Shown here one piece after another: positions 1 through 17,746 of a stretch of DNA of 64,000 nucleotides. The notes under the pieces are model-generated. The model had not been told where the DNA came from, ran no database searches, and worked only from the letters and a program-made list of their open reading frames with translations. Within the stretch, counting starts at the first letter, position 1; every line of letters begins with the position of its first letter. Position numbers and translations under genes: made by a program. The DNA comes from an uncultured Rhodospirillaceae bacterium (lineage in GTDB: Bacteria > Pseudomonadota > Alphaproteobacteria > UBA9219): assembly GCA_964587125.1 (NCBI GenBank), contig CAZPKC010000006.1, forward strand, positions 7,881-71,880, written 5' to 3'.

Positions 1-2348
1 ATTTTCGGAAAAGGCGTATTATAAATCGTGCCGACCCCGCCGCCTTGTTTAACGGCCTCAAAATTTTCCCCGATTTGATTTTCGGCATAATCCGGTTCGG
101 CCAACATACGAATGCTGTGGTTTTCCCACACGCCTGCATAAACGTCAAAATTCGCCCGTTTTCCTGCTTCATAAAGAATCGCCATTGTTTGCAGGCAGGA
201 GTCGATCCGGCGTCCTCCATCGGACAGCGCCCTTCTTGTACTGCCGGAACCATCGCCCAGAATCCACAACTCCACGCTGGTCGGCTCGGTTTCAATCTGA
301 TCTTTTTTCCAGCGTTGTAAATCTGCATCCTCAATTTTTTGTCCGGTCGCGCGTTTCGCGGCCAAATTCATGTGCGCTCGCATATCGAGACGTTGGCGCA
401 CGTCGCCGCCACGCGGCAATTGTTCTTTTTGCTTCGACAGGCCGCGCACAAATTGTTTTTGCTGATCGCGGATATAGACAAAATCGTCGGCGACGCGAGA
501 GATTACAGGCTCAAGTTCATTAATCCGCTTCCTGAATTCTTTCCAATCTCCGCCTGACAGTTTGGTAAGATCAACGTTCCTTTGGCCATCGCTGCCGCCC
601 TGCCCCATATTAAGGTCACAGGGAGTTCCATTTCCGGCTTTTTCGTCCCCTTGCGCCTCTTTGCCGTCCTTGCCGTTGGAGGCATTGTTTTTGCGTTCCT
701 GCTGCTTGGCGTCATGCGCGAGATCGCGTACAGTCTTTGCATCGTCCGTGTTGACTTCTTCTTCGCTCTTTTGGCGGTCGGCTTTCCGCGCTTCTTCCGG
801 CGTTGACGGCAAGCTGCCGTCAATATCCATTTTGCCGACGCCCTCGACATCAACCGAGCCGGGATCGCCGCCTTGCTGTTCCTCCCCGCCCGATCCGCTG
901 CTACTGCCTTGAGAGGGGGACGGATCGTCGGAATTTTGCTGATTTTGTTGTGACCCAGACCCGCTTGTCCCGTCGGATTGTTTTTCGCCCTGCTGTTTGG
1001 AACCTTCGCTTTGCCCGTTTTTCTGGTCTTCGGACTGCTGTTGCTTCTGATTCATCTTGTTTTCGGCATTTTCTTCTGCCGCGTCGATCAGAACTTGAGC
1101 GTAGGGCGCGGCGTATTTGTCCCAGATGCCGTCAATCAGCTTGCAACGTCGGTCGGCATAGGCCTCTACACTACGGGCGAAAACGCTTCTGAACAACCAA
1201 CGGTCGCGTGCAGCGGGTTGCAGATTGGCCACGCCTTCCGCGCCAACGCATTGTTTCATAAGATCATCAAAGTTGCTGTTATCCACGCCCTTAATGTCGG
1301 CGGGATCAACGCCAAGGTTTTTCCATGTCTCCGTATCCGATGTTTCAAACAGCCCATTGGTAGTATAAAAAGACAACGCTAAGGCTTTTCTGAGTTTGCT
1401 TAGGGCTTCCTCGGCGTCAGCAATCTCTTTTTGTTTTGGGGCAAGCGTTAATCCCTGTTTTTGGGGCAAATTGCCTTGCTCAACTGCCCTTAAATACGCG
1501 CCGGAGCCTTGCAGGGTTACGTTCGCTGTGTTTAACGACTCAGCAAAATCGTGCGGAAACTCGATGCTTTGATTGGCGGCATAACGGTTCACGCAATTGT
1601 CTTCCGTCGCGTTGTATATATCATGGCGCAATTCAAATTCTTTGCGGGTGCGCGAAAGCTGTTTGAATTCGTCGCGCGTCAGCTTGCGTGTCTTGCTTTC
1701 CTCTAACAATTTATCTACGCGCTCTTTCAACGGAAGCATCGCATCCGTATATCGGGTTGAAAGTTGCGCGTGGCCAACTTCGTGTATCATCACGCCCGTC
1801 GCATGAGCCAGCCCCTTCATTCCAGGCGCGGGGTCTTTGCCAAAGCCGAGCAGCAGTGTATGAAACAGGTCGATGTTGATATGGTTTTTATCCGGCGAGA
1901 ACCAGAACCAGCTCCCCGGCGTTCCCCAATCCATTGTAGCGTTGCGGTTGGTAATCGAAAGATCGACATAGCGTGCGGACGCGCCAAGTGACCCCGATAA
2001 CTGAGGATTGCGCGTCAGCGTTTTCCACAGAGAACTGGAACGAATTGTGCCAGATTTACTGTTTTGAAAAACAAACCCCAATCCAGCGGCCCAGACCAAC
2101 TGCCCCGCACGCGTCGATAAATCCGCCTCAACACGGGCGCTTGGATCGGTCATAACCTGTTCAAGCTTCGACCGTTCCTGTGCGGCTTCCGATGGCAAAG
2201 CGTCTAGGAATTCTTTAAAGCTCGTTTCGTTCAGGGATTTTTCGTTAAACCGTTTTTTCAGGTCAAGCGCATACGCGGTGAAAGGATCGTTATATATGCG
2301 ATCCAGTTCCGTTTGTACTGAAAGTCTTATTTCACCAAGGTTTGGCAT
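1..2348 (-). CDS. Large protein, partial in the window (its C-terminus runs past position 1). Putative HExxH metallopeptidase domain, then a long Q/S/G/E-rich acidic low-complexity linker, then a vWA domain (DUF2201-like metallopeptidase+VWA architecture)
   Basis: I translated the minus strand myself from ATG-ATG at about 2343-2348 and got an uninterrupted reading frame down to position 1. It is absent from the ORF track, presumably because there is no stop codon in the window. Motifs read directly: GVMIHEVGHAQ (HExxH) and LWILGDGSGSTRRAL (DxSxS MIDAS of vWA). Between them is a roughly 150-aa Q/S/G/E/K-rich linker. Confidence 0.55.
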   Translation of the reverse strand, partial: MPNLGEIRLSVQTELDRIYNDPFTAYALDLKKRFNEKSLNETSFKEFLDALPSEAAQERSKLEQVMTDPSARVEADLSTRAGQLVWAAGLGFVFQNSKSGTIRSSSLWKTLTRNPQLSGSLGASARYVDLSITNRNATMDWGTPGSWFWFSPDKNHINIDLFHTLLLGFGKDPAPGMKGLAHATGVMIHEVGHAQLSTRYTDAMLPLKERVDKLLEESKTRKLTRDEFKQLSRTRKEFELRHDIYNATEDNCVNRYAANQSIEFPHDFAESLNTANVTLQGSGAYLRAVEQGNLPQKQGLTLAPKQKEIADAEEALSKLRKALALSFYTTNGLFETSDTETWKNLGVDPADIKGVDNSNFDDLMKQCVGAEGVANLQPAARDRWLFRSVFARSVEAYADRRCKLIDGIWDKYAAPYAQVLIDAAEENAENKMNQKQQQSEDQKNGQSEGSKQQGEKQSDGTSGSGSQQNQQNSDDPSPSQGSSSGSGGEEQQGGDPGSVDVEGVGKMDIDGSLPSTPEEARKADRQKSEEEVNTDDAKTVRDLAHDAKQQERKNNASNGKDGKEAQGDEKAGNGTPCDLNMGQGGSDGQRNVDLTKLSGGDWKEFRKRINELEPVISRVADDFVYIRDQQKQFVRGLSKQKEQLPRGGDVRQRLDMRAHMNLAAKRATGQKIEDADLQRWKKDQIETEPTSVELWILGDGSGSTRRALSDGGRRIDSCLQTMAILYEAGKRANFDVYAGVWENHSIRMLAEPDYAENQIGENFEAVKQGGGVGTIYNTPFPK

Positions 2349-2793
2349 CATTAATCCACTGAATTATATAATTTTTTTGTCGGTAACAACAAATCGTTAC
2401 TTCAAACACAATTTATAATAATCGGAAAATGCAGTTTACAGGAAAGCAATGAAAGTAAATAGAAAATTCAGCGTTAACCATGATCGCGCTAATGTCCGCA
2501 ATTCTTACGGAACTGAAAGATCACTGTAGTAATTGTGCCTTTTGCCTTCTTGATATTCTTCGGTTGGAGGGAGTTCCTATCCGGTTTCACCCTGCGGTGC
2601 AGGACATTTAAACGTTGGGCGCGACTATCTGATTTTTCCAAGACTCCTTCGCAAAGTGCAGACCCTTTGAACTTGAAGCCTCACGCCACTGCGTTAAAAT
2701 GATTAACATTTATTCTTCCCTTGAAACCGCTAACTGCTGCCCTTAAGTGTAACGAGGTTCGGATATCGTCTACTAACCTCGACCATGAAAAGA

Positions 2794-2820
2794 AAAAAGG
2801 GCCAAATTTGGCCCTTTTTT
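2794..2820. terminator. GC hairpin flanked by A-run and T-run (aaaaaagggccaaatttggccctttttt); bidirectional intrinsic-terminator-like stem-loop
   Basis: Perfect 7-bp GC stem gggccaa/ttggccc, A-tract 5' and T-tract 3'. It lies in the divergent intergenic region between the first two genes. Confidence 0.45.
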
Positions 2821-3002
2821 CTTTTCACAGTTGATGAGAATGGGTTTGACCGTCCGAGAAGGAGGTTGGATGCCAAGCCATTCCTTATAGCGTTCGAGGC
2901 AGCACCGCGAACGCGCAAAAATATAATTTTATGGCGCAGACAGGGCGAGCGATGTGCCCTCTTAGGCACATCGAGAAGCCAATCTCTCTTCGACCAATAA
3001 AG

Positions 3003-3024
3003 AAGGGGCCAAGTGGCCCCTTTT
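3003..3024. terminator. Second, near-identical GC hairpin (aaggggccaagtggcccctttt), terminator-like
   Basis: Palindrome ggggccaagtggcccc followed by a T-run. It is a near copy of the hairpin at 2794-2820. An additional hairpin (cgatgtgcc / ggcacatcg) sits at about 2950-2974. Confidence 0.4.
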
Positions 3025-3177
3025 CATTTCAATGATCTGAAAACAGGGTGAGCCCATCACTCAGCCAGAAAACTTATTGGATAAACATGGTTAAAAAAGA
3101 TACTTCCGATGAAAGTATTTTTAGCCTCGTCCATGTTATATACTCAGGCGCTTTCATCATATGAATTTTAAAACATC

Positions 3178-5931
3178 ATGTTTGACCAAATTGATTACGA
3201 CTGCATGACGGCTTTAAGAGAACGGCTCCGCGTTCAAGTTGGGCTAACCCGCCATTATAATGTCAGTTGTTCGACGGGGCGCATTCCCCTTAGTAACGGG
3301 TCAAGTAGCGCTTCTCATTTTCAACCTGAAGAAAATGAAATTCTTCGCTTCTATACCCGCAAAGGAAATAACCACACGCCTCAGTTTCTATTGGCCCCCC
3401 TCACGCCCGAGGCGTTTGAAGAAAGGGTGCAAAACGTTAAGCTGACGACGGCCGGAAAACAACGCGCAGAGATTGTTCGACGCGCGATAAAAAAACATCC
3501 TGAAAATTTTTCGCGGCAAGTCGTCACGGCGTATTCGGCGCTTTATAACGAAATTCTGCCCTCCCGGATTCGGCAAATTACGATCGATTATGAACTTTTT
3601 GCTCCGGAATTTTTGATAGAGGTGCTTCAGGATAAAACCTCCGCAACGCACCAGCTTTTGGGGACAAAAGAGGGAAACGATTTTATTTTAACCCGCTTTT
3701 CGGATGTCCGTACGGCCTGGAAAATCGGGGAAACGCCTTTCGATTTGTTGCATACGACGCCAAAAGGCCCGATTCAGCTCATGCCCTATCGAGGCGACCT
3801 TTCTCCGGATACATTATGCAACAAGTTGAAAGCCGCAGAGATTATCCCGAAATCGGCGCTGAACACTCTCGTGTTTCTTCTTGAAGCTGGGCTTGCGCCC
3901 GTTGGCGGCATGGAACAGGTGCTTTATGCAACCCAAATCAAAGAACGCGTTCTTGAGTGGCTCAAGACTTGCCGCCCTGAGGACCCGCGTATCGACGCCT
4001 TTTCGAAAATCCCGACAGACCGTTCTTATTTCTCCTTATGGGGCGCGTGCTCGGATGATTTATGCGCCCCTGCCTATTACGGGAACGCGTTGCATGATTG
4101 GCGCCTGACCGAAGCAACGGCACGGGATATTATGGACGTGCCGGGATCGATCTCGATGAGCGCTGATTCCATCGTTCTTAACAATCGGTTGCTTTCCTCT
4201 TCCGAAGAATTTCTTGACGAAGAAACGGCTCGCGAAGCGTTCGCCCGTTTGGCTGAAAAAGGAGCTCTTGTTCTTGTGTCGAAACCCTCCTTGAAAAAAC
4301 AAAAGGGAGAGGCTTCTCGGAAATTGCAAGACATCACGGACCCCCTTCTTTCCGGATGCATGGATCGCGTTCTTAGAAAACGGCCGATGTTCGATTTGGT
4401 TCGCCAAGCCAAAACTCTTCGCGATTACGTGAATCCTCTTATGGACTGGACTTTTCAACCTGAAACGTTTCCCTATGCACGCTCCCTTCTGGGGCACATC
4501 GTCAATGAAATCAAAATCTGCTACGGGGATTCCACGGCGCAGGACGTCAAGAAGCAATTGGAGAAGAATTTTTCAGTTGAAACGGGCGTACACGTATCTC
4601 TTCCGCGCACGATGAACCGCCCGGGCAAGCCTTCTTCTCCGATTTTCAACAGCAGCACGCTTTGCTATCAGGCGATCCTTCTTTCCGCGGCGGCACAACT
4701 CACAACGCCGCTTGTTCCAACCGATTTATGGGCACAGGTCATCGACCTATTCCACGGCGTAGATTCGGCCCCTTATAATCCGCAGATTCAGCCTCTGCCC
4801 TCTTTCGTCGATTGGGATAAAATTCGGATCGACAAGAACGATCCGCGTTTTTATGAGAAGCTTGTTCCGCTCGGCCCCTTTTCGCGCTATTTCAGCATTT
4901 TTACGGACGGCATTTACGCGGGCGAACGCGAAACGTCCTGCTATACGCCCGGTGAAATCGAAGGCGCAACGATAACTCCCTTCGTTCGCGAAAGCCTCGC
5001 CGAACGGCTCACGCTTGCAAATATGCTTTTGCCGGAAGGCTATGCTTTTCTGGTATTCGAAGGACACCGTGAAGTGAGGGATCAGAAAACTTTTTTTGGG
5101 CGATTTGCCAACAAACTCTACGAAGACAAGAAAGGAAGTTTTATCGAGGAAAAACAGGGATTCTTGCGTCCCTATACGAAAGAAGACGCTTTTTCCGAGG
5201 CCCAAAAGCATTGGCTACCGCCGGATGCCGAAAATTCGACTCACACGACCGGAGGTTCGCTTGATCTCACCCTTGTTCGCTTCGATAAAAACGACTGGGA
5301 ATGCCTGCAAAAGCTTAATCGGGATCAGCAATATCTCCTTGATCTCGGTTTATCCGAATCCGATGACAGAATCTTCGAGATAGAATTGCAGCGCCATCAA
5401 CTTTTCCGAGAGAAGGCGCGGATGGTGCCGATGGGAATCGTTTTTGACGAAGTTTCTTGGGATGAAAAAGGTTATCGTAAATCAGACCTGCGCTATTTTG
5501 CGGAAAAGAGAGAACGCGAGCCAAAAAATCCCGAGTTTTTGCTAAGCGAGGAGGAAAAGCAGATTGAAGAAAATCGCCGTCTCCTTCACACGATCATGAC
5601 GATCGTCGGTTTTACGCCCGGAGAAAGAGAACTGTACCATTTTGACTTGTGGAACAAACGTTGGGCTACTTCCACAAAAAGCTCCGTTTCCTTTTACGGC
5701 CCCGCCGTTCGTTCACCCGAAAATCTGGAATTCGAGCAATTTCGGAGAGACATTCGCGATCTCAGCATCAAAGCCTCAAATCCGGATTTTGATCCTGCAA
5801 AATTGATCTGGGGCGATTCGATAAGATTTGAGCTTTTACGCCAATACGGATCGATGACAACCGCCAATCTCGACCGCCAGTACCGCGCGGCTTATATTCC
5901 TTCATGTCCGTTGTCCTGTAAAGCGATGTAA
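3178..5931 (+). CDS. 917-aa hypothetical protein. The C-terminal ~350 aa carry a VanX/DdpX-like (peptidase M15D) D-Ala-D-Ala dipeptidase signature. The N-terminal ~550 aa are unrecognised
   Basis: Long ORF in the track. Motifs read: ENSTHTTGGSLDLTLV matches the VanX zinc-site motif S-x-H-x-x-G-x-x-x-D-L-T-L. The downstream ERELYHFDLW matches the E-x-x-H catalytic/His-ligand motif. The upstream LPEGYAFLVFEGHRE resembles the VanX N-terminal GY...D/E-G-YRP region. Confidence 0.6.
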   Translation: MFDQIDYDCMTALRERLRVQVGLTRHYNVSCSTGRIPLSNGSSSASHFQPEENEILRFYTRKGNNHTPQFLLAPLTPEAFEERVQNVKLTTAGKQRAEIVRRAIKKHPENFSRQVVTAYSALYNEILPSRIRQITIDYELFAPEFLIEVLQDKTSATHQLLGTKEGNDFILTRFSDVRTAWKIGETPFDLLHTTPKGPIQLMPYRGDLSPDTLCNKLKAAEIIPKSALNTLVFLLEAGLAPVGGMEQVLYATQIKERVLEWLKTCRPEDPRIDAFSKIPTDRSYFSLWGACSDDLCAPAYYGNALHDWRLTEATARDIMDVPGSISMSADSIVLNNRLLSSSEEFLDEETAREAFARLAEKGALVLVSKPSLKKQKGEASRKLQDITDPLLSGCMDRVLRKRPMFDLVRQAKTLRDYVNPLMDWTFQPETFPYARSLLGHIVNEIKICYGDSTAQDVKKQLEKNFSVETGVHVSLPRTMNRPGKPSSPIFNSSTLCYQAILLSAAAQLTTPLVPTDLWAQVIDLFHGVDSAPYNPQIQPLPSFVDWDKIRIDKNDPRFYEKLVPLGPFSRYFSIFTDGIYAGERETSCYTPGEIEGATITPFVRESLAERLTLANMLLPEGYAFLVFEGHREVRDQKTFFGRFANKLYEDKKGSFIEEKQGFLRPYTKEDAFSEAQKHWLPPDAENSTHTTGGSLDLTLVRFDKNDWECLQKLNRDQQYLLDLGLSESDDRIFEIELQRHQLFREKARMVPMGIVFDEVSWDEKGYRKSDLRYFAEKREREPKNPEFLLSEEEKQIEENRRLLHTIMTIVGFTPGERELYHFDLWNKRWATSTKSSVSFYGPAVRSPENLEFEQFRRDIRDLSIKASNPDFDPAKLIWGDSIRFELLRQYGSMTTANLDRQYRAAYIPSCPLSCKAM

Positions 5932-5984
5932 AATATCGCGCTCTAGAAATAGGGTTCACAACAGGGGCTTTTTTAAGGTAAGAC

Positions 5985-7445
5985 TTGCGAGAGAAGGCAA
6001 AACAATCCCCTTTCCAAGGAAAGCCCCATATGCGTTCTATTTTTCGCAAGAAAATCATTACCCATACGGATTCCGAATATGACCGTAGTTCTTTACGAAA
6101 ATGCCTTTCCGCCCTTGACCTGACGTTGCTCGGCATCGGATGCATTATCGGCACGGGAATTTTCGTTCTTACGGGCATAGCGGCCGCGACGCAGGCCGGT
6201 CCCGCCGTTGTCCTGTCTTTTGTGATCGCCAGCGTCCCCTGCATTATGGCCGCTCTTTCCTATGCTGAACTGGCTTCCTGCGTGGGCGGTTGCGGCAGCG
6301 CCTATGGTTATTCCTATGCCGCATTCGGCGAACTGATCGCATGGATCGTGGGGTGGGACCTTATTCTCGAGTATGGGGTTTCGGTCGCAGCCGTCGCCAA
6401 TGGTTGGTCGGGTTATTTCAATAACATTCTGACTGTCATCGGCTTGTCGCTTCCCAACTGGCTTACGCGCGGGCCTTTCGACAGCGGGATCGTCAATCTT
6501 CCCGCCGCATTTATCATTCTGACGCTGATGGGCGTTCTTGTGCTGGGCATCCGGCAAAGCGCGCAGACGAACGCGGCGATTGTTTTTATCAAGCTCGTGA
6601 CGCTTGCCGTTTTCATCATTGTTGCGTTGTTCAATATTCATCCGGCAAACTGGCATCCTTTCATGCCTTACGGCTGGTTTTCAACTCTGCCCGGCGGAAA
6701 GACCGTCGGCGTCCTTGCTGCGGCTTCTTTGGTGTTTTTCGCCTATGTAGGTTTCGACGCCGTTTCGGTCGCCGTCGAAGAAACGCGCAATCCGCGGCGC
6801 GATGTGCCCATCGGCATTCTGGCCTCTCTGGGATTTTGCACGCTTGTCTATGTTATCGTATCGGGATTGCTGACTTCTCTCGTTCCCTACACCGAGCTTA
6901 ACGTGTCGTCGCCGGTCGCTTTCGCGCTTCAACAGATCGGCATTCATTGGGCGTCGGCATTGGTCGCCACGGGCGTTATCGCGGGACTGACTTCGGTGAT
7001 GCTGGCGCTTTACTACGCCCTAACCCGCATCATCTACGCCATGGGACGGGATGGTTTGCTGCCGCGAGGCGTGGCGCTCGTCAACGAGAGGACGCTCACC
7101 CCCGTGCGCGCGACGGTACTGCCGGGCATCCTTATGGCGATCATCGCAGGATTTTTTCCTCTCGGCATTTTGGCGGAACTGGTGAATATCGGCACGTTGG
7201 CGGCTTTTATTCTTGTGTGCGGGGGCGTCATCGTTCTGCGGTACACGCATCCGAAAATGCACCGCCCCTTCAAAGTGCCGGGAGGCATCGTCTTGCCGAT
7301 GCTCGGCGTCGTGACGTGCGGCGCATTAATCGCTTTCTTGCCGCTCATCACGCATCTTCGATTTGTCATCTGGCTTGTAATCGGCATCGCCGTTTACTTC
7401 GGCTACTCGGTCAGACACAGCAATCTGGCCGACAAGCACAACTAA
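5985..7445 (+). CDS. APC-superfamily amino acid permease (cationic amino acid transporter-like), ~12 TM
   Basis: Hydrophobic multi-helix translation. The N-terminal region LTLLGIGCIIGTGIFVLTGIAAATQAGPAVVLSFVIASV is typical of APC permeases. An alternative start at the internal ATG (about 6030) has an aggaaag Shine-Dalgarno. Confidence 0.8.
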   Translation: MREKAKQSPFQGKPHMRSIFRKKIITHTDSEYDRSSLRKCLSALDLTLLGIGCIIGTGIFVLTGIAAATQAGPAVVLSFVIASVPCIMAALSYAELASCVGGCGSAYGYSYAAFGELIAWIVGWDLILEYGVSVAAVANGWSGYFNNILTVIGLSLPNWLTRGPFDSGIVNLPAAFIILTLMGVLVLGIRQSAQTNAAIVFIKLVTLAVFIIVALFNIHPANWHPFMPYGWFSTLPGGKTVGVLAAASLVFFAYVGFDAVSVAVEETRNPRRDVPIGILASLGFCTLVYVIVSGLLTSLVPYTELNVSSPVAFALQQIGIHWASALVATGVIAGLTSVMLALYYALTRIIYAMGRDGLLPRGVALVNERTLTPVRATVLPGILMAIIAGFFPLGILAELVNIGTLAAFILVCGGVIVLRYTHPKMHRPFKVPGGIVLPMLGVVTCGALIAFLPLITHLRFVIWLVIGIAVYFGYSVRHSNLADKHN

Positions 7446-7466
7446 GGCTTCCGTAAAAAAAGATTT

Positions 7467-8216
7467 TCATTTACCGACTTGCTTGAGCGTCGCGGCAATC
7501 AGCCTTTTAGCCGCAGGCAGAGGATCTCCCTTGGTGACGTAATAAAGAGAGATTTTTTCTTTTTTGTCGAGCACCAACGGACGCACGGACGGAGTTGTCG
7601 AGCTTTCGCTCATAATGCCTAATGCCTCCGGTATTTGGGCTACGATTCTTTCGATCATAGTGGCATTAAGCATTTCGCGCCTATCCGCCTTTATCGGCTT
7701 GCCTCCCAGAAGATTCTTTTCGACATCGGAGCGAAGCCCCCCCGATGGAATTTCGGTCACAACGAGGATGGGTCTATCCTCGCCGCCGACCTCTTTCCAG
7801 TTGGTTGTTTTTCCGCTCAGGATATCGGCGATTTGAGATTCTTTCAGCTCTTTAACCGGATTAGATGGATTGACTGTAAAAGCAACATAGGTCTTTAAGA
7901 TTTCCAAGGGCTTGAACGCGGCAATATCGATAGCGCCGGGCGTTTCCGCATTCACTTTGGCGGCTGTGGCTGCCAAATCGCTGGATATCATGGCTATGTC
8001 GGCCTTGCCTTTCGCCAGATCGAGCAAGCCTTTGCCCGAACCGTTAGCCACGATATCAAGAACGAGCCCAGAATCCCGCTGAATTTCGGCGGCATGGGCA
8101 TCAAAAACCGCGGCGACAAACGTGGTCGATCCATGGATGGAAATCGTTTCGGCAATCCCTGACGTCGGAAACAGAAGCGCGCCAAGCAACACTATAATTT
8201 TAATGCCAGATTTCAT
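7467..8216 (-). CDS. Periplasmic solute-binding protein of the PstS/phosphate-binding-like PBP family (orphan, no transporter genes adjacent)
   Basis: Signal peptide MKSGIKIIVLLGALLFPTSGIA; motifs ISIHGSTTF and ANGSGKGLLDLAKGKADIAMISSDL. Start chosen at M20 of the track ORF (7467..8273). Confidence 0.6.
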   Translation of the reverse strand: MKSGIKIIVLLGALLFPTSGIAETISIHGSTTFVAAVFDAHAAEIQRDSGLVLDIVANGSGKGLLDLAKGKADIAMISSDLAATAAKVNAETPGAIDIAAFKPLEILKTYVAFTVNPSNPVKELKESQIADILSGKTTNWKEVGGEDRPILVVTEIPSGGLRSDVEKNLLGGKPIKADRREMLNATMIERIVAQIPEALGIMSESSTTPSVRPLVLDKKEKISLYYVTKGDPLPAAKRLIAATLKQVGK

Positions 8217-8385
8217 AAAAAATTCCTTATACGTTGGAGCAAAAAAGTTAAACGAGAGATTCTCTTCTACCAAAACCCGGATAAATTCACCAGTTCAAAA
8301 TGTCAGAAACAATTTTCGTTAGGGAAGTATTAAGGGCTGTGGCGCTACGTTCTTCGGGCAACGAGAATCATTCAGGAGAAGCAAA

Positions 8386-10203
8386 ATGGGTCGTTTGCGC
8401 GGGTTTTCTTTATCAACCAAAACGGGTCTTGTTGCAGTTCTTGTTTCCGTTATATTTGGCATCGCCGTCATCTGCTCGACGCATCTTATCTTAACTTCGT
8501 ACTTACTGGAACACGCACAAAAAGAGGTTGGCTCCAATCTGCGGTTGGCGCGCACCATCGTCGAATGGAGCTATGGAACGAATTATAGCCAAAAAGACGG
8601 TCGTCTGTTCGTCGGAAATCACGCTATCGATAACGATATGAATTTAATCGATCAAATCACCTCCCAGTTTGGTGAAGATGGCGAGGTTATGACGATTTTT
8701 AAAGACGATGAGCGCATCATTACGAACGTCATAGATCCCAAAACCAATTCGCGCGCGATAGGAACGAGGCTGTCCGAAGGACCCGCCTATAATTCGGTTT
8801 TCCGCGAAAAGAAAAAATACGATGGCGAAGCGACGGTTTTGGGAACCACCTATCTTTCGACCTACGATCCCATCTTTGACGAAAATGGAAAGGTCATAGG
8901 CATCTTTTTTGTAGGTCTTAACAAAGCGTCGGAACTTGCCATCATCAAGAAACTCGAAACCATCATGGCCAGCGCGACGGCGTTTATCGCCTTGCTTGTT
9001 GCCGGTATTTTCTGGTCGGTTTCCCGCTTCCAAATGAAGCCTCTTTTAGAAATGGTGGATGTCGTCGAAGGCCTTCGTCAGGGAAAAACGGGGATTGACG
9101 TGCCCTTTCTCGATCGAGGCGATGAAATTGGGAAAATGGCCTTCGCTATCGAAGTTTTCAAAAAAGACATCATCGAAAATGCCCGCCTGCAAGAAGAGCA
9201 AGAAAAAGAAAGAACCGCTGCCGAAAAACGGACGGCGGAGATTCTCCAATTACAGGCGGAGAAGGCAAAAGAGATGGAGGCCAACGAGAAGAGAACGGCC
9301 CAAATCCTCGAACTGCAAGCGGAGAGAGAACAAGAGCTTGCCGCTAAAGAAAAAAGAACAGTGCGGATATTTCAGCTTAACATCGATTTTGAGAAAGCGA
9401 TCGAGACGGCTCTTGATTCGCTTCTAACCGCCCAAACGGACCTGAACGCCACGGCGGGAGCCATGTCGGAGAATGCTTCCGTAGCCATACATACCGTTCA
9501 GTCGGCCGAGGTTTCCGTTCAGGACGTTTTGGCAAACATACAATCTATCGCTTCCGCGACGGAAGAATTGACCTCATCATCCGTCGAGGTTTCGCGGCAG
9601 GGTTCCTATTCGTCTAAAATTGCCATGAGCGCCATAAATGAGGTCGAGGACACCTCTAAAACTATAAACTCTCTGGCGGATATGGGGAAAAAGATCGGCA
9701 GTATCGTCGATATCATCAAAAACATCGCCTATCAGACGCGTTTGTTGGCCCTTAATGCGACGATTGAAGCGGCGCGCGCGGGCGATGCGGGAAAGGGGTT
9801 TTCCGCCGTTGCTTCCGAAGTTAAAACCCTTGCCGCCCAAACGGCAATGGCGACGGAAGACGTTGCTTCGCAAATTGCGCATATACAGGAAACTTCTCAG
9901 TTTGCCGTCGCTGCAATTATGAAAATTCGCACCATAATTAAGGAAATGTCGGAGATATCCGCCGCTGTCGCGGATCATGCGGAAGAACAGGGCTCAGCGA
10001 CGGCGGAAATTAGCCGTAATGCCAGCAGCGTCGCCAAAGAAGCGTCGAAGCTCTTAAACGACATATCCAGCGCGGAAGAATCGACCAACAAAACCGGATT
10101 GTCGTCGGGAAAAGTCTTGTCAGCTTCAATTTGCCTTGGCGCTCAATCCGACGAACTCAACAAAACCGTCAAGGATTATCTGACAAAAATCAGCCAAGCC
10201 TGA
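8386..10203 (+). CDS. Methyl-accepting chemotaxis protein with periplasmic Cache-type sensor, HAMP, internal coiled-coil repeats and C-terminal MCP signalling domain
   Basis: Two TM segments flank a ~160-aa periplasmic domain. Signalling-domain signature [36 protein letters not shown]. Repeated [14 protein letters not shown] units. Confidence 0.85.
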
Positions 10204-13121: not shown

Positions 13122-14513
13122 TTGGATGAGTCAAAGCATGATCCGGGTTTTGTTTTCATGAATTCGCCCTTCCCTTCAGAACGGTACGATGCAGATAACG
13201 CTTTCGCGCGCGGCGTCGCTGCCCAAATTAAAGGAGATATAAATGCCGCCGCGCAAGAATGGCGGCGTGCCCTCGTTCTTGCGCCGGAACACGCGCCTGC
13301 GCTTTATAATCTGGCTGTCGCTTCGGCTTTAATGGGGGATGAAAAAGGCGCCGAGGAAAATTATGAAAAGCTTCTGGCTCTGCACCCCGAGCATAGGGAC
13401 GCCCTTTTCAATCTTGCCAATCTGAAAAAACGTCAGAAGCGCGACGCCGACGCCGAAAACCTTATCAGGCGGTTGACAACCGCTCATCCCGATTTTGCTT
13501 CCGGTTGGGTCAATCTGGCTAAAATATATTCGGATCGCGGCGATTTGAAAAACGCGGAGCCGCTGCTTCGCAAGGCCTTAAAGCTCGACCCCTCCCACGT
13601 CGTCGCGCATTGGAATTTATCTCACGTTTTATTGCGTTCCCATTCTTGGGAAGAAGCATGGAAAGAATATGAATGGCGTTTGCAGCTTCCGGGCTGGCTC
13701 AAGCCGCCGGTTTTGGCAAAAGCGTGGACGAAAAACGTTCCGGCGCGACGCATTTTCTTATGGAACGACCAAGGCAGAGGGGACGCGCTTCAATTTCTCC
13801 GTTATCCCCGCCTGCTGGCGGAAAAAGGGCATGAAGTTTGGGTGCTTGTTCAGGAAGACTTGAAAACGATTGCCGCAACGGCGCCCGGCGTGACGGGAGC
13901 CGTCGGCCCCGACGATCCCTTCCCCGAAATCGACGCCGAAGCGCCGCTTCTCAGCCTGCCCTATCGCCTTGGTTTGCCCGATCCACGAAATGCGGGAACC
14001 GCGCCTTATCTTTCAAGCAAAAAGCAGATGTCCCTGCCCCATCGTTCCAAACAGCTTGCTGTAGGATTGGTTTGGGCTGGGAATCAAAAATTCAAAAACG
14101 ACGCCGATAGAAGCGCGCCGCTTTCCTCTCTTACGCCGCTTTTCGAGATCGAGAATATCGATTGGTACAGCCTTCAATGCGGCGACGCGCACGAACAAAT
14201 TCGGGAAAATCGTCTTTCGGACGTTATTCGAGATTTATCGCCGGGCTTAAGAGATTTTTCCGATACGGCCGCCGTTTTGGAAGCGTGCGATATTATCATA
14301 AGCGTCGATACCGCCGTCGCGCATTTGGCCGGAGCCCTTGGCCGCACGTGTTATTTGATGCTTTCAACAAAGCCGGATTGGCGTTTTGCCGACGATGAAA
14401 CGGCGAGCCTTTGGTATCCGACTTTACGCCCGTTCAGGCAAATCCACGCGGGCGATTGGCAAAGCGTTGTGTCCGATATCGCAACCGCGTTGAGAGAAAA
14501 ATTATCACAATAA
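13122..14513 (+). CDS. TPR-repeat protein fused to a glycosyltransferase family 9 (heptosyltransferase-like) domain
   Basis: The N-terminal half has TPR-like repeats (ALYNLAVASALMG, ALFNLANLKK, GWVNLAKIYSDRGD). The C-terminal half has LAVGLVWAGN... and IISVDTAVAHLAGALGRTCYLML, typical of GT9. An alternative start at M13 is possible. Confidence 0.65.
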   Translation: MDESKHDPGFVFMNSPFPSERYDADNAFARGVAAQIKGDINAAAQEWRRALVLAPEHAPALYNLAVASALMGDEKGAEENYEKLLALHPEHRDALFNLANLKKRQKRDADAENLIRRLTTAHPDFASGWVNLAKIYSDRGDLKNAEPLLRKALKLDPSHVVAHWNLSHVLLRSHSWEEAWKEYEWRLQLPGWLKPPVLAKAWTKNVPARRIFLWNDQGRGDALQFLRYPRLLAEKGHEVWVLVQEDLKTIAATAPGVTGAVGPDDPFPEIDAEAPLLSLPYRLGLPDPRNAGTAPYLSSKKQMSLPHRSKQLAVGLVWAGNQKFKNDADRSAPLSSLTPLFEIENIDWYSLQCGDAHEQIRENRLSDVIRDLSPGLRDFSDTAAVLEACDIIISVDTAVAHLAGALGRTCYLMLSTKPDWRFADDETASLWYPTLRPFRQIHAGDWQSVVSDIATALREKLSQ

Positions 14514-14564: not shown

Positions 14565-17519
14565 TTACTGATTAATTCCGTCAATGCCGCAAGGCGTAAC
14601 TTCATTGCACTGAATAAGCGGCGTGATGCCCGCGTTTCCAGCCCCGCCCGCCTGAGGCGACAGTTCGGCAAGAGAAGTCGGGTTATCGCCGCCCGCATGA
14701 GGCGACAAATCAGCCAAATTCCCGCCCGTGGTCTCTCCGCCGCCGCCGTTCACGATCGAAAGAAGCGTGCCATAGGGTCCGTTTCTGTTGAAGTTATGAG
14801 GAACGTGCTCAAGCACGTCGCCGATGTCCAGAGGATCAACCGTCAACGTGCCCGGGACTATCGTAATAGTGTAGCCGTCGGGATTAGTCGCCACTGTGGC
14901 GACCGCGCCGATGTCAGGATAAGCACCCACGGGCGCCGGAGGCGGCGATCCCGCCGACGTTATATTACTAAAGGTCGGCGGCGTTGTAAGGAAGACGCCG
15001 AGATAAGCGCTCGGATCATAAGCGGCCCCGCCAATCGTATAGCTCGACGTAAAGCCATCGCTCGCCACGACCGACGTGTAGTCTTGCCCGAAAAACTTGG
15101 TCAGATCGTTGAAGGTCACGGTAAGAGCGGGCTCGACGGCGAAGACGTAACGGTCGCCATCGACGGTAATGCTGGTGGGATAAACGGTGTCCCAAATGGC
15201 CGTATTCCCGCTATCGAGGTTGCCGAATACGTCCGTCAGGGGACTGTAGCTATAAACCAGCCAGCGTCCGTCCAAAGCGGTGGGGCTTGCATTATTATTG
15301 ATGAAGTCGCCGTAGCTGTCGGCAAGCGTCACGGACGTTCCTTCTGCCGTGCTATTGACGCCGCCGTTTGCGCCCAGAGTAATGCTTCCGGCTCCGATGC
15401 TCGCGTTCCCCGCAAGAACCTCCGCCAGAAACACGCTGTTGCCCATCGTTTGCATGCCGTTAATTTCGATGCTGCCGGTGTCGTTCAACAGGTTCACGTT
15501 CGTTTGCCAAGTATAGCCGTTGGCCGTGATCGTTCCCGAATCGCGGAAAGTGTTGCCGACGGTAATGCTCGCCGCTTCGGAATTCACATCGCCCAAAACG
15601 GTATTTGTCAGTTGAAGGGTGATGGGGTCGCCTTCGTTATTGAACGCTTCGTCCGCCGGCGATCCGCCGACGCCGATGTTGGTGCCCGACGTAAGAGGTT
15701 CGAAGAAAACGTCTCCGGTTGTTTCTATGGTAGCCGTATTGTCCATGCTGATCGTGTCGGTCACGAAGACGATGTTTCCGCTGTCCCCTACACTGCCGAT
15801 CGTGGCTCCGTCGGTCACGACGATACCGTAATTCCCGTCGCTCGCGAGATTATCTCCGCCGCCGATGCCGACGATCTTGATATTGCCGCTCGTCGAAAGA
15901 ACTTCCGCGTCGGACGTTATGAAGACGCCATAGTTGTTTCCGCTAGGAGAAACATCGCCAATGCTTTCGACAGCGGCAACGAAGTCTTCGCTATCGCTGA
16001 CAGAAACATTTCCACCTTGGCCGAAGATTTTGACGTTGCCGCTATTCGAATAAACTTCCGTGCCACACGTCAGATAAACGCCATAGTTGTTTCCACTGCC
16101 AAAACCGCTGCCTGCGCCTCCGCCGATGCCAACGATCTTGATGTTGCCGCTATCCGATGAAACGACGTCGCCGCTATCCGATGGGACATCCGCGCCGGGC
16201 GGCGTTATCATAAAGACGCCATAGTTGTTTCCGCTGACATTGGCAGCGTCTTGACCGCCGCCTTGGCCGAATATCGAAATCTTGCCGCTACCGCTTGTCT
16301 CGACAACAGAGGCGTTGGCCAACTCGACGCCGTAATCGTAACCGGCCACAAAGGAAGATGCCCCGTTATATCCCGTGCCGGAGATGGAAATGTTCCCGCC
16401 GTTGCCCGCATTAAGCGTGGCGTCGTTAAGATAAACGCCGGCCGTATAAGAACTGTTGCCCTGACCGGCAAGTTTGATGTTTCCGCCGTTCGTGACAATG
16501 GACGAACCCGGATCCATTTCGATCGAGCCGCCGCTCGCCTTAACGCTGCCGTCATTGGTCGTAATGGACGAACCTGCGCCCATATCGATGGAGTTGGCCG
16601 TCAGAACGATCTGGCCGTTTACGGTTTCGACGTTTTCGGCCTGAACGATGCTGTCCAGATTGATCTGGCTGTCGACGACGGCCTCGGCTGCGGACGCCGT
16701 CAATATGACTTGGCCGCCGTTGGAATTGATCGTGCCTGTATTTTCGACCAGCTGATCCTTGATATTTCCGCTGGCCGTCATGCTAAGAAGCCCGTCGCCA
16801 TAAAGATCGACGGAAGTAGCCGTATCGCCGGAAGCAAGAATGACTGTGCCGACATTGGCGTTGATCGTGCCATTATTGACCACTTCAGGAGCGACAAGCG
16901 CGACAAGCCCGCTCGATGTTATCGTGCCGTTATTCGTGACGGACGCAGAGCCGTTGCCGCCCGGCGCAAAGGCGAACGTATTGGTCGTAACATTGGGATT
17001 GAAATTCGAAGAACTGATCGCGCTCGCCGTTGCGATCAAGCCGCCGACGCTGACGGTCGAACCATTTTCAAACGTGATGCCGTTGCCGTTAGCCAGAATA
17101 AGCGTGCCGTTCGGATCGCTGATCTTGCCGAAAATTTGCGAGGCGCTGTTGCCGCCAATTTGGGCAAGAGTCACCATACTTGAAGCAGTAGATTTGTTAA
17201 CAAAATCGACCGTAGCGCTGGAGCCGACGTTGAAGCTCAAAAAATTGATAATCGCGCTGGCTGAGGTTTGTTTGATCGTTTCGGTAACGGTAGGCTTCAA
17301 AATGGTACCGCCGAAGCTGTACCCCAAAGAGGCGTTGCCGCTGGAAGCAATGTTGCTCGGAGTAAGGATCTTGGTTGGAACGGGCGTCGTGAGCGCGGGA
17401 ACCGCTGCCAACGCGGAAGAAACGAACGCCGGATTGATAATGCAAACGGCGGTCAAAAGGCCAGCTATGCTGCTGGCAAATTTCTTATTGTGTTTTTTCG
17501 TCATAGCCGAGTCTCCCAA
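14565..17519 (-). CDS. TpsA-type exoprotein (filamentous-haemagglutinin-family N-terminal TPS domain) with repetitive beta-helical body
   Basis: Signal peptide, then a TPS-domain-like region (ISDPNGTLILANGNGITFENGS, resembling the NPNGI motif). Long G/S/N/T-rich sequence with repeated GNNYGV(Y/F) and SGNIKI(V/F)G(I/Q)GG units. Confidence 0.7.
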   Translation of the reverse strand: MGDSAMTKKHNKKFASSIAGLLTAVCIINPAFVSSALAAVPALTTPVPTKILTPSNIASSGNASLGYSFGGTILKPTVTETIKQTSASAIINFLSFNVGSSATVDFVNKSTASSMVTLAQIGGNSASQIFGKISDPNGTLILANGNGITFENGSTVSVGGLIATASAISSSNFNPNVTTNTFAFAPGGNGSASVTNNGTITSSGLVALVAPEVVNNGTINANVGTVILASGDTATSVDLYGDGLLSMTASGNIKDQLVENTGTINSNGGQVILTASAAEAVVDSQINLDSIVQAENVETVNGQIVLTANSIDMGAGSSITTNDGSVKASGGSIEMDPGSSIVTNGGNIKLAGQGNSSYTAGVYLNDATLNAGNGGNISISGTGYNGASSFVAGYDYGVELANASVVETSGSGKISIFGQGGGQDAANVSGNNYGVFMITPPGADVPSDSGDVVSSDSGNIKIVGIGGGAGSGFGSGNNYGVYLTCGTEVYSNSGNVKIFGQGGNVSVSDSEDFVAAVESIGDVSPSGNNYGVFITSDAEVLSTSGNIKIVGIGGGDNLASDGNYGIVVTDGATIGSVGDSGNIVFVTDTISMDNTATIETTGDVFFEPLTSGTNIGVGGSPADEAFNNEGDPITLQLTNTVLGDVNSEAASITVGNTFRDSGTITANGYTWQTNVNLLNDTGSIEINGMQTMGNSVFLAEVLAGNASIGAGSITLGANGGVNSTAEGTSVTLADSYGDFINNNASPTALDGRWLVYSYSPLTDVFGNLDSGNTAIWDTVYPTSITVDGDRYVFAVEPALTVTFNDLTKFFGQDYTSVVASDGFTSSYTIGGAAYDPSAYLGVFLTTPPTFSNITSAGSPPPAPVGAYPDIGAVATVATNPDGYTITIVPGTLTVDPLDIGDVLEHVPHNFNRNGPYGTLLSIVNGGGGETTGGNLADLSPHAGGDNPTSLAELSPQAGGAGNAGITPLIQCNEVTPCGIDGINQ

Positions 17520-17746
17520 ATTTCAAACGCCGAATATGGATTAACAGATTATTGATGCACAATGAAGTCTTAATGTTTCTTTAGCAACAGAAAAAAATAC
17601 TTTCACCCCTCCTGTGTACGGGAAAAATGTGGGAATTTACCCGTTTTTCCCCGAAAACTCTTGTTTACACACGGTTTTTAATCCTATACACTTCCGCGTC
17701 GCTGTTTGGTCTCGAAAATCGACTTTTATGCCGAAGGGAAAATCCG

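Follow-up and report, generated by a model that had tools for sequence, protein, structure and literature searches.

A long-form VanX-type dipeptidase domain fused to a circularly permuted, unannotated domain suggests an undescribed enzyme pair for D-amino-acid dipeptides

The question raised by this locus is what a VanX-type dipeptidase domain is doing at the end of a 917-residue protein, and what the remainder of that protein might be. The gene lies in the window, by which we mean the whole 64,000-nucleotide stretch that was analysed, and all features given here with coordinates are on its plus strand. The ORF (3178..5931) is complete, with an ATG start, 917 codons that translate without an internal stop, and a terminal stop codon, and it encodes, in order, a module A, a module B and an M15D domain. 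The identical 917-residue protein recurs in independent assemblies (ENA, JGI, Logan, NCBI), on 5 contigs in all. A sequence-only reading had described the protein as an orphan, and a word-indexed search, which returned only the protein itself and a stand-alone relative, P0002, suggested the same. An exhaustive HMMER scan overturned that view by recovering 351 relatives at E<=1e-3, in two separate families to which the two halves of the protein belong. Only the full-length architecture is unique; in the exhaustive search the fusion was confined to a single lineage and one 90%-identity cluster.

The C-terminal domain spans residues 536-874 (4783..5799) and matches positions 13-327 of a family-C profile HMM at E=6e-98, the profile having been built from 70 rows with the query among them (1/70). 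Both VanX-type motifs picked out in the sequence-only reading are real. The first, STHTTGGSLDLTL, at residues 687-699 (5236..5274), contains H689 and D696, which correspond to the VanX Zn ligands H116 and D123. The second, ERELYHF, at residues 816-822 (nt 5623-5643), includes E818-L-Y-H821 (5629..5640), the equivalent of VanX E181 and of H184, the third Zn ligand. Upstream of both, R631 (5068..5070) is the equivalent of VanX R71. Pairwise alignment to VanX (1R44) gave the correspondences GH-R631/R71, H689/H116, D696/D123, E818/E181 and H821/H184 at E=0.16; in VanX, R71 is the arginine that stabilises the transition state and E181 is the catalytic base. Because that E-value is weak and the query scores 20-24 bits against Pfam PF01427, under the gathering score of 27, the motif reading is not significant by itself. 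Scores against NCBIfam models were 21.5 bits for PRK10178 (DdpX cut-off 176) and 14.6 for dipept_VanX (VanX cut-off 320).

Firmer evidence comes from the family as a whole. In the 70-row alignment the catalytic columns are R in 70/70, H in 69/70, D in 69/70, E in 69/70 and H in 68/70, and although the query alone falls short of the Pfam threshold, 69 of 70 relatives match PF01427 (Peptidase_M15) at E<=0.01, with a best value of 7e-21. The family profile retrieved VanX 1R44 at E=4.9e-12, the next match being at 2.7e-4. An AlphaFold (AF2) model of residues 531-917 (pLDDT 90.5, pTM 0.90) was compared with the PDB using Foldseek; VanX 1R44 was the top match (E=4.3e-7, prob 1.00, TM 0.63 per VanX length) and the sole one with E<=1e-3, the next having E>0.05. 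Judged by these profiles and the predicted fold, the assignment of the C-terminal third to the VanX type (M15D, LAS clan), with its catalytic residues in register, holds.

The earlier observation that an insertion interrupts the domain was correct, since the spacing between the Zn-binding Asp and the catalytic Glu is 121 residues in the query vs 57 in VanX. Neither the insertion nor the large size is a peculiarity of this protein, however. Residues 536-874 belong to a family of stand-alone, long-form M15D proteins of ~350 aa (about 330-390 aa), in which the same spacing has a median of 106 and a range of 91-133, so that the query falls inside it. About 97 of the best 150 matches in the exhaustive search align query residues ~540-860 as one colinear stretch, including the insertion. 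That segment (~residues 702-746; 5281..5415), which follows the DLTL strand immediately, forms two helices in the 531-917 model (model positions 174-192 and 200-216) and is missing in VanX: the VanX alignment is interrupted between VanX residues 131 and 132, where the family profile advances from 169 to 212. The insertion is real and is a trait of the whole long-form family, whose members carry ~30 N-terminal, ~50 internal and ~70 C-terminal residues more than VanX. In NCBI these proteins are labelled 'M15 family metallopeptidase'. On two contigs the gene for one of them, P0010, which is 34% identical to the C-terminal region of the query by alignment, immediately precedes an alanine racemase gene.

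Such extensions could reshape the substrate pocket, and the query is unusual beside its catalytic positions, with E628 where D is usual and L819/Y820 where W/W is usual (family EWWH). It also scores under the PF01427 threshold, and with these unusual residues its activity or specificity may differ from that of VanX. The M15 domain might then act on an amide other than free D-Ala-D-Ala: the N-aminoacyl- or N-acyl-D-amino acid made by a pathway of the N-terminal domain's family and a racemase, for example, or else a muropeptide fragment, as for VanY or LdcB carboxypeptidases. VanXY, VanY and LdcB do come after VanX in the profile and fold lists, and 49 of 70 family members also match the VanY model. 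Nonetheless, VanX is clearly the nearest solved structure by profile and by fold, the predicted location is cytoplasmic and the neighbour of P0010 is an alanine racemase gene, and we regard action on another amide as improbable.

By profile comparison, the N-terminal region (residues 24-508) belongs to an unannotated family, referred to here as family N, of which it is a circular permutant. Against a profile built without the query, module A (residues 24-354; 3247..4239) matches positions 128-466 at E=1.3e-78 and module B (residues 394-508; 4357..4701) matches positions 13-125 at E=4e-34. Module A is equivalent to the last two thirds of the stand-alone family-N proteins and is 43% identical to P0002, while module B is equivalent to their N-terminal part and is 42% identical to P0002 residues 39-151 (both by BLASTP). 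The order in the query is A then B, whereas in every other full-length member seen it is B then A. The break falls at profile position ~126 with no loss of profile coverage, and between the modules lies a Lys/Ser-rich linker (residues 355-393; 4240..4356), outside both profile matches, which connects the native fold's C-terminus to its N-terminus. Module A holds Q114, G238 and the motif G243-G244-M245-x-Q247-x-x-Y250, and module B holds W424, F431, 'VETGvH472vsLP476R' and Q498. With the query among the aligned sequences, all 11 family-N invariants (Q114, G238, G243, G244, Q247, Y250, W424, F431, H472, P476 and Q498) are kept, and it is solely from this conservation that we infer the permuted fold to be viable.

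Stand-alone family-N proteins are 450-570 aa long and come from Alphaproteobacteria MAGs, including a Micavibrio sp. Among the members found, circular permutation and fusion to an M15D domain occur only in the window protein. P0060 was considered as a second permuted member and rejected, being an N-terminally truncated gene in native order. A word-indexed search with the family-N alignment returned close P0002 relatives only; scanning genome contigs with a single protein gave no match, and with an 8-sequence alignment gave 5 loci. Three upstream proteins without Pfam matches, the divergently encoded one of ~920 aa in the window and those of 861 aa at P0003 and 181 aa at P0002, were tested and are unrelated to the target.

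A permutation found in a single 90%-identity cluster could also mark a rearranged, non-functional gene, its N-terminal region the debris of duplication or recombination and the fusion a decaying remnant. The truncated P0060 shows that family N can decay, the ATG of the fusion gene is not preceded by an obvious Shine-Dalgarno sequence, and the gene's GC3 is 0.53 vs 0.65-0.73 in housekeeping genes. Yet neighbouring accessory genes have similarly low GC3, the 917 codons are uninterrupted, both modules are complete with respect to the profile, all invariant residues of both families are preserved and the C-domain model is highly confident. A dead gene is a very unlikely explanation. The 827-bp intergenic region upstream gave nothing above noise in Rfam, terminator and promoter scans.

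What kind of protein family N might be was approached through P0002, as a stand-alone proxy for the query N region. Its predicted structure (pLDDT 91.6, pTM 0.90) appears nearest to BshC and the class-I aminoacyl-tRNA synthetases, and family N probably has a tRNA-synthetase/BshC-like ligase fold. With the same model, a Foldseek search of the PDB gave no significant match and did not recover the BshC likeness, and the family-N profile found no match among PDB sequences. Pfam searches with 46 members at E<=10 gave no consistent match and none to BshC or tRNA-synt families. Neither HIGH (HxGH) nor KMSKS occurs in the query or the family-N consensus, which instead conserve 'ETGxHxxLPR' and 'GGMxQxxY'. 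To our knowledge no in vitro reconstitution of BshC chemistry exists, which leaves the analogy weak as a guide to mechanism. Literature searches on family N, BshC-like paralogues and permuted class-I synthetases found nothing relevant; if this reading is true, the window protein would contain a circularly permuted class-I-synthetase-like catalytic domain, of which these searches gave no report.

The gene neighbourhoods suggest a chemistry. Downstream of the fusion gene, across a 98-bp gap, is an APC-family amino-acid permease (6030..7445), noted as an amino acid permease in the sequence-only reading and matched by Pfam AA_permease_2 at 6.6e-49; its highest-scoring NCBIfam model, BcaP, gives 576 bits against a cut-off of 690. 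The gap contains no consensus terminator, and a promoter-like site lies at 5870-5898; co-transcription of the two genes is possible. At the stand-alone family-N loci, an MR_MLE gene of the OSBS/N-succinylamino-acid-racemase type (NSAR) is immediately downstream in 6/6 distinct loci. These partners are orthologous, the three sequences compared being 46-53% identical to one another, and the family-N partner scores above the cut-off of TIGR01928 (OSBS/NSAR type). No M15 gene was found in the family-N loci, and no MR_MLE gene in the whole 64-kb window. The window also holds a ~920-aa HExxH protein adjoining the fusion gene and a filamentous-haemagglutinin-like gene.

OSBS/NSAR-type enzymes of the enolase superfamily invert the configuration at the alpha-carbon of amino acids or dipeptides that are N-acylated. 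With a putative racemase as the partner of family N in one setting and a putative D,D-dipeptidase in the other, its chemistry would be that of N-aminoacyl or N-acyl amino acids. We propose, with confidence that is about evenly divided, that the fusion protein works in the cytoplasm and combines two enzymatic activities towards small D-amino-acid compounds that bear an N-aminoacyl (or N-acyl) group, D-Ala-D-Ala being an example. In the C-terminal domain, Zn would be bound by H689, D696 and H821, E818 would serve as general base and R631 would steady the tetrahedral intermediate, the predicted reaction being hydrolysis of a D-configured dipeptide. The N-terminal domain, on the model of MshC, BshC and the aminoacyl-tRNA synthetases, may activate the carboxylate of an amino acid with ATP and then ligate it to an amine. 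In the lineage of the window, the place of the MR_MLE partner would be taken by a D-stereospecific amide hydrolase that forms part of the same polypeptide. The analysis shows the domain boundaries, the permutation, the conserved catalytic and invariant positions, the fold similarities and the gene-neighbour counts; the substrates, the need for ATP and whether the pathway salvages D-Ala-D-Ala or D-amino acids or instead makes D-amino acids are all inferred. The earlier suggestion of D-amino-acid dipeptide salvage is compatible with the evidence. Counting against it, a ligase fused to a hydrolase of like bonds looks futile unless the bonds or substrates differ.

A simpler account would make the protein a plain DdpX/VanX-like D-Ala-D-Ala dipeptidase for D-Ala salvage, with the N-terminal 510 residues a non-catalytic binding, oligomerisation or regulatory module whose enzymatic role was lost after permutation. 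The profile and fold evidence for VanX is all this account needs, P0010 beside an alanine racemase and the target beside a permease fit nutrient salvage, and family N has no HIGH or KMSKS, no sequence link to any ligase and no Foldseek support for its fold. It sits less well with the N-terminal region, where 11/11 invariants, among them the polar H472, Q114, Q247, Q498 and Y250, are retained at ~25-40% overall identity, which argues that an active or ligand site has been maintained. The permutation break is clean, with no profile positions lost, and the strict pairing of stand-alone family N with an enzyme is typical of a metabolic enzyme, not a regulator. We consider loss of the N-terminal activity unlikely, if still a serious possibility.

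The bifunctional proposal can be extended, speculatively and in our estimate rather doubtfully, to family N at large. Its members would be a new class of aminoacyl-tRNA-synthetase/BshC-like ATP-dependent amide ligases, making dipeptides or N-acyl-amino acids, which, with an NSAR-type racemase and a D-stereospecific VanX-like hydrolase, provide an undescribed, ATP-driven and irreversible ligate-invert-hydrolyse route for L/D interconversion that makes D-amino acids or salvages them from the peptidoglycan of prey or of the cell itself; the fusion would then be a Rosetta-stone link.

The sequence-only reading had also raised a cell-wall-active effector; such a protein might be secreted or injected, and a predator might use it against prey peptidoglycan. 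From its PyrG relatives the uncultured host is probably a Micavibrio-like alphaproteobacterium, apparently akin to predators, M15 enzymes include cell-wall hydrolases, and the HExxH and haemagglutinin-like genes lie within the same window. However, the 917-residue protein has no signal peptide, lipobox or hydrophobic/TM segment (maximum 19-residue Kyte-Doolittle mean 1.42), and secretion is accordingly unlikely. Its nearest relatives are VanX dipeptidases with a closed, dipeptide-size active site, not endopeptidases, the fused partner's predicted fold is that of a cytoplasmic nucleotide-dependent enzyme, and the stand-alone families sit among metabolic genes. An effector is, on balance, extremely unlikely. 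Given the lineage's apparent relationship to predatory Micavibrio-like bacteria, the protein could plausibly serve to scavenge D-amino acids from the cell walls of prey.

If these readings are true, a sizeable long-form subfamily of VanX-type dipeptidases, so far uncharacterised, exists outside glycopeptide-resistance operons, which bears on how "vanX-like" genes are read in resistome surveys. The N-terminal region would expose a protein family absent from domain libraries, with a confident BshC/class-I-synthetase-like model and a strictly conserved racemase partner; with the racemase and the D,D-dipeptidase both indicating its chemistry, the family would be a well-defined target for enzyme discovery. 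As a natural circular permutant, the fusion would inform how catalytic domains of such a fold tolerate rearrangement.

Among known systems, the closest to the C-terminal domain are VanX and DdpX (E. faecium VanX 1R44, E. coli DdpX; MEROPS M15D, PF01427), which share with it Arg, His-x6-Asp and Glu-x2-His in the same order, the core fold and a predicted cytoplasmic location. They are ~200 aa long, against ~340 aa for the query domain, which has ~30 extra residues before the Arg, the ~45-residue two-helix insertion after the DLTL strand with ~20 more leading up to the ExxH helix, and a tail of ~70-95 residues beyond the final His. The query further differs in having ELYH for EWWH, a fused second domain of 510 aa, no van/ddp operon neighbours and scores below the curated Pfam and NCBIfam cut-offs for VanX/DdpX. 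Family N, in turn, is 9% or less identical to BshC (4WBD), MshC and the class-I synthetases (LysRS-I, CysRS). Its gene partner is an enolase-superfamily racemase where that of BshC is bshA/bshB, it comes from Alphaproteobacteria MAGs, and its domain in the window protein is a circular permutant.

For the proposed pathway, the precedents are the NSAR pathway, an irreversible D-to-L amino-acid conversion via an acylating enzyme, NSAR and a stereospecific deacylase, and the L-Ala-D/L-Glu epimerase operons. The three components proposed here were never seen together in one locus examined. The acylating enzyme of that pathway is a GNAT succinyltransferase using succinyl-CoA, whereas the putative bond-former here is aminoacyl-tRNA-synthetase-like, and its hydrolase is an M20 L-desuccinylase, whereas ours is VanX-like and, in the proposal, D-specific. 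The shared logic would be to combine a bond-forming enzyme, an MR_MLE racemase or epimerase and a stereospecific amide hydrolase, with N-acylated amino acids as the substrates throughout.

The target protein is encoded by the sole long reading frame at its position (3178–5931, + strand; 917 codons, ATG start). Its translation contains the two motifs from which the sequence-only reading had proposed a VanX-type domain, STHTTGGSLDLTL at residues 687–699 and ERELYHF at residues 816–822, together with the segment EGHRE at residues 628–632. Scanned alone, the target scored 20–24 bits across 33 residues against PF01427 (Peptidase_M15), under the gathering score of 27, and fell far under the cut-offs of the NCBIfam DdpX and VanX models. 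A phmmer comparison with VanX (PDB 1R44) gave a weak alignment (E=0.16) that pairs R631, H689, D696, E818 and H821 of the target with R71, H116, D123, E181 and H184 of VanX.

In a word-indexed search the full-length target returned only itself and P0002, a relative of 507 aa. When 1.84 billion cluster representatives were scanned exhaustively with HMMER, 351 proteins were recovered at E≤1e-3, 144 of them at E≤1e-10, and the earlier description of the protein as an orphan has to be given up. The relatives split into two sets without overlap. Family C (about 97 of the best 150 matches) consists of stand-alone proteins of 330–390 aa that match query residues ~540–860 in one stretch, and family N (about 52 of the best 150) of stand-alone proteins of 450–570 aa that match residues ~25–510 in two stretches. 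Among the matches listed, only the target carries both regions, and the fusion is therefore unique to the target lineage at 50% clustering.

Residues 531–917 were aligned with 69 family-C proteins, and the consensus of the 70 rows, DAYRP ... SPHNTGGxVDL ... EWWH, closely resembles the VanX counterparts DGYRP, SSHSRGSAIDL and EWWH. Five catalytic columns are conserved in 68–70 of the 70 rows, the target has the consensus residue in every one, and R631, H689, D696, E818 and H821 are in register with VanX. When family-C members were scanned singly, 69/70 matched PF01427 (best 7e-21) and 49/70 the VanY model. Searched against PDB, the family-C profile ranked VanX 1R44 first (4.9e-12); VanXYg/VanXYc and VanY-type carboxypeptidases came after it, with E-values from 3e-4 to 1e-2. 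An AlphaFold model of residues 531–917 (mean pLDDT 90.5, pTM 0.90) had VanX as its top and sole significant Foldseek match in PDB (E=4.3e-7, probability 1.00, TM 0.63 normalised to VanX), with VanY, LdcB and VanXY next in rank. The C-terminal third lies in the LAS/M15 clan with its catalytic motifs in register, and the original assignment therefore stands; we are confident that the domain has a VanX-type fold and catalytic machinery.

An insertion said to interrupt the domain is real, although it is a trait of all family C and not peculiar to the target. About 43 extra family-profile positions, two helices in the predicted structure, fall where the VanX alignment breaks (VanX residues 131/132), and the spacing from the zinc-ligand Asp to the Glu is 121 residues in the target, 91–133 in family C (median 106) and 57 in VanX. 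Family C also has ~30 additional residues ahead of the Arg, and 70–95 after the last His. The target carries E628 where 68/70 family-C members have Asp, and ELYH where most have EWWH; judged by sequence it is a somewhat divergent family-C member, which accounts for a Pfam score under the threshold. That D-Ala-D-Ala is the domain's true substrate is a tentative proposal that we would sooner doubt than assert. The domain may act on another amide: the ranking of VanX first by profile and by fold speaks for the dipeptide, and E628, ELYH and the longer spacing leave room for a different substrate. On two contigs the gene for P0010, a family-C protein that NCBI lists as "M15 family metallopeptidase [Alphaproteobacteria bacterium]", has an alanine racemase gene directly downstream. 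Two further relatives differ in architecture: in P0109 (834 aa) a YdhS-like FAD/NAD(P)-binding domain (PF13454, 7e-31) is fused in front of a long-form M15D domain, and in P0012 (612 aa) ~250 aa are inserted into M15D, after the Zn-Asp strand and before the ExxH helix.

The N-terminal region aligns with P0002 in swapped order, query 391–503 with P0002 39–151 and query 27–360 with P0002 162–493, at 42–43% identity in both pieces. A profile of 46 stand-alone family-N members, from which the query was left out, gave the same picture: profile positions 128–466 match query 24–354 (E=1.3e-78) and positions 13–125 match query 394–508 (E=4e-34). The break, at about position 126, costs no part of the profile. 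An unlikely rival reading of the swapped order is a rearranged gene in decay. Order exchanged without loss is what a clean circular permutation leaves behind, and we read this region as one from its alignment; once the homologues were re-permuted in silico 11 columns were invariant, query included (Q114, G238, G243, G244, Q247, Y250, W424, F431, H472, P476 and Q498).

No consistent Pfam match was obtained, even at E≤10, for the query N-terminal region, P0002 or any of the 46 members; an NCBIfam scan of the full-length target gave nothing in this region, and the family-N profile found no match among PDB sequences. Family-N proteins are named only "hypothetical protein" in their sources. P0002, modelled with the family alignment as a representative (pLDDT 91.6, pTM 0.90), has, in native order, a conserved ETGxHxxLPR after the first predicted strand and a conserved GGMxQxxY after a later one, where a helix starts; these positions are compatible with the two class-I nucleotide-binding loops. 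We consider an aaRS/BshC-like fold likely. That the domain performs ligase chemistry is a more speculative suggestion, and a non-catalytic N-terminal region is its rival. That family N has no canonical HIGH or KMSKS motif speaks for the rival, and the retention of all 11 invariant residues speaks for an active or ligand site that has been kept.

In all six distinct readable family-N loci (L001/L011; L005/L015, from Micavibrio sp. GCA_046294845.1; L007; L012; L013; L014) an MR_MLE enolase-superfamily gene lies directly downstream, often overlapping (5109–6245 in L001, 7555–8715 in L005). The three partners compared (L001, L005 and L007) share 46–53% mutual identity, and that of P0002 scores 254 bits on TIGR01928 (OSBS/N-succinylamino-acid-racemase type; cut-off 200.65) and far lower on L-Ala-D/L-Glu epimerase models. 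None of the six loci contains an M15 gene and the 64-kb window contains no MR_MLE gene, so in the target lineage a covalently joined D,D-dipeptidase-type domain takes the place of the usual racemase partner, at least locally. The two kinds of partner have N-acylated or N-aminoacylated amino acids as substrates, and the configuration of the C-terminal residue matters to both. P0060 (L016, 7535–8590, with equivalents in L017 and L018), a truncated gene of family N, is without most of module B (the strand and ETGxH part). It has a SAM-methyltransferase gene on one side and a gene of the Peptidase_S51 (dipeptidase E) family on the other, and the csgEFG genes for curli secretion lie downstream; the Peptidase_S51 neighbour is a third, weak hint at dipeptides. 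Around the P0002 pair (L001, 1041–7437), a methionyl-tRNA synthetase gene and a 181-aa protein without matches lie upstream and a MetA-type homoserine O-acyltransferase gene downstream, and these flanks are not kept in the Micavibrio locus L005. There, an 861-aa ORF without a Pfam match (3401–5986) sits directly upstream of the family-N gene in the same orientation and shows no relationship to proteins of the window.

Within the window, an APC-family amino-acid permease gene (best model BcaP, under cut-off) follows the target by 98 bp on the same strand, in agreement with the earlier description. The 98-bp gap has no consensus terminator and a promoter-like site overlaps the target 3′ end; the two genes may be co-transcribed. 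A secreted cell-wall-active effector, one of the earlier suggestions, is unlikely: no signal peptide or membrane segment was found in the target (highest 19-residue Kyte-Doolittle mean 1.42), and its N-terminus is hydrophilic. A ~920-aa ORF runs divergently from the target, with its 5′ 783 codons in the window (1–2351, − strand); it is unrelated to the target, has no Pfam or NCBIfam matches, and contains an HEVGH (HExxH metalloprotease-like) motif near residue 190. The intergenic region (2352–3177) is unusually long (827 bp) and AT-rich (GC 0.42), with no Rfam family above noise; its two perfect GC-rich palindromes with A/T runs on both sides, at ~2791–2822 (aaaaagggccaaatttggcccttttt) and 3003–3022 (aaggggccaagtggcccctt), resemble bidirectional terminators or repeat elements. 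GC3 is 0.52–0.55 in the upstream ORF, the target, a PBP-like gene and a Cache-MCP gene (1–10203), 0.67 in the permease, and 0.67–0.73 in the housekeeping genes pyrG, purL, DAHP synthase and nuoG (23988–45964), with 0.65–0.73 as the range for housekeeping genes of the window; the first ~10 kb may be accessory or acquired DNA. Further along is a 984-aa ORF (14565–17519, − strand) with a filamentous-haemagglutinin N-terminal (TPS) domain (TIGR01901, 1e-13), beside a TPR protein (13122–14513) and a 624-aa ORF without matches (17627–19501). The nuo operon, purL, pyrG and the DAHP synthase gene mark the window as chromosomal. The nearest named PyrG relatives (89–92% identity) come from MAGs that carry the label Bdellovibrionales or Alphaproteobacteria, family N is present in MAGs of Alphaproteobacteria, Micavibrio among them, and the host is probably an uncultured Micavibrio-like alphaproteobacterium.

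The C-terminal domain is of a known kind, to which it adds a new and divergent member, and its long-form subfamily appears to be uncharacterised. The N-domain family has no representative in Pfam, in NCBIfam or among PDB sequences, we found no literature on it, and its permutation and its fusion to M15D are unique among the matches listed from the 1.84 billion cluster representatives. Our overall picture, in which belief and doubt are evenly balanced, is of a cytoplasmic bifunctional enzyme: the C domain would be a Zn-dependent, D-stereospecific dipeptidase of VanX type, and the N domain an aaRS/BshC-like nucleotide-dependent ligase. The racemase that accompanies family N and the hydrolase fused to the target N domain suggest a scheme of ligation, inversion and hydrolysis, which could run towards either salvage or synthesis of D-amino acids. 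The N-succinylamino-acid racemase pathway, which interconverts D- and L-amino acids irreversibly, follows an analogous logic, although the proposed scheme would have an ATP-dependent ligase where that pathway has a succinyl-CoA transferase.
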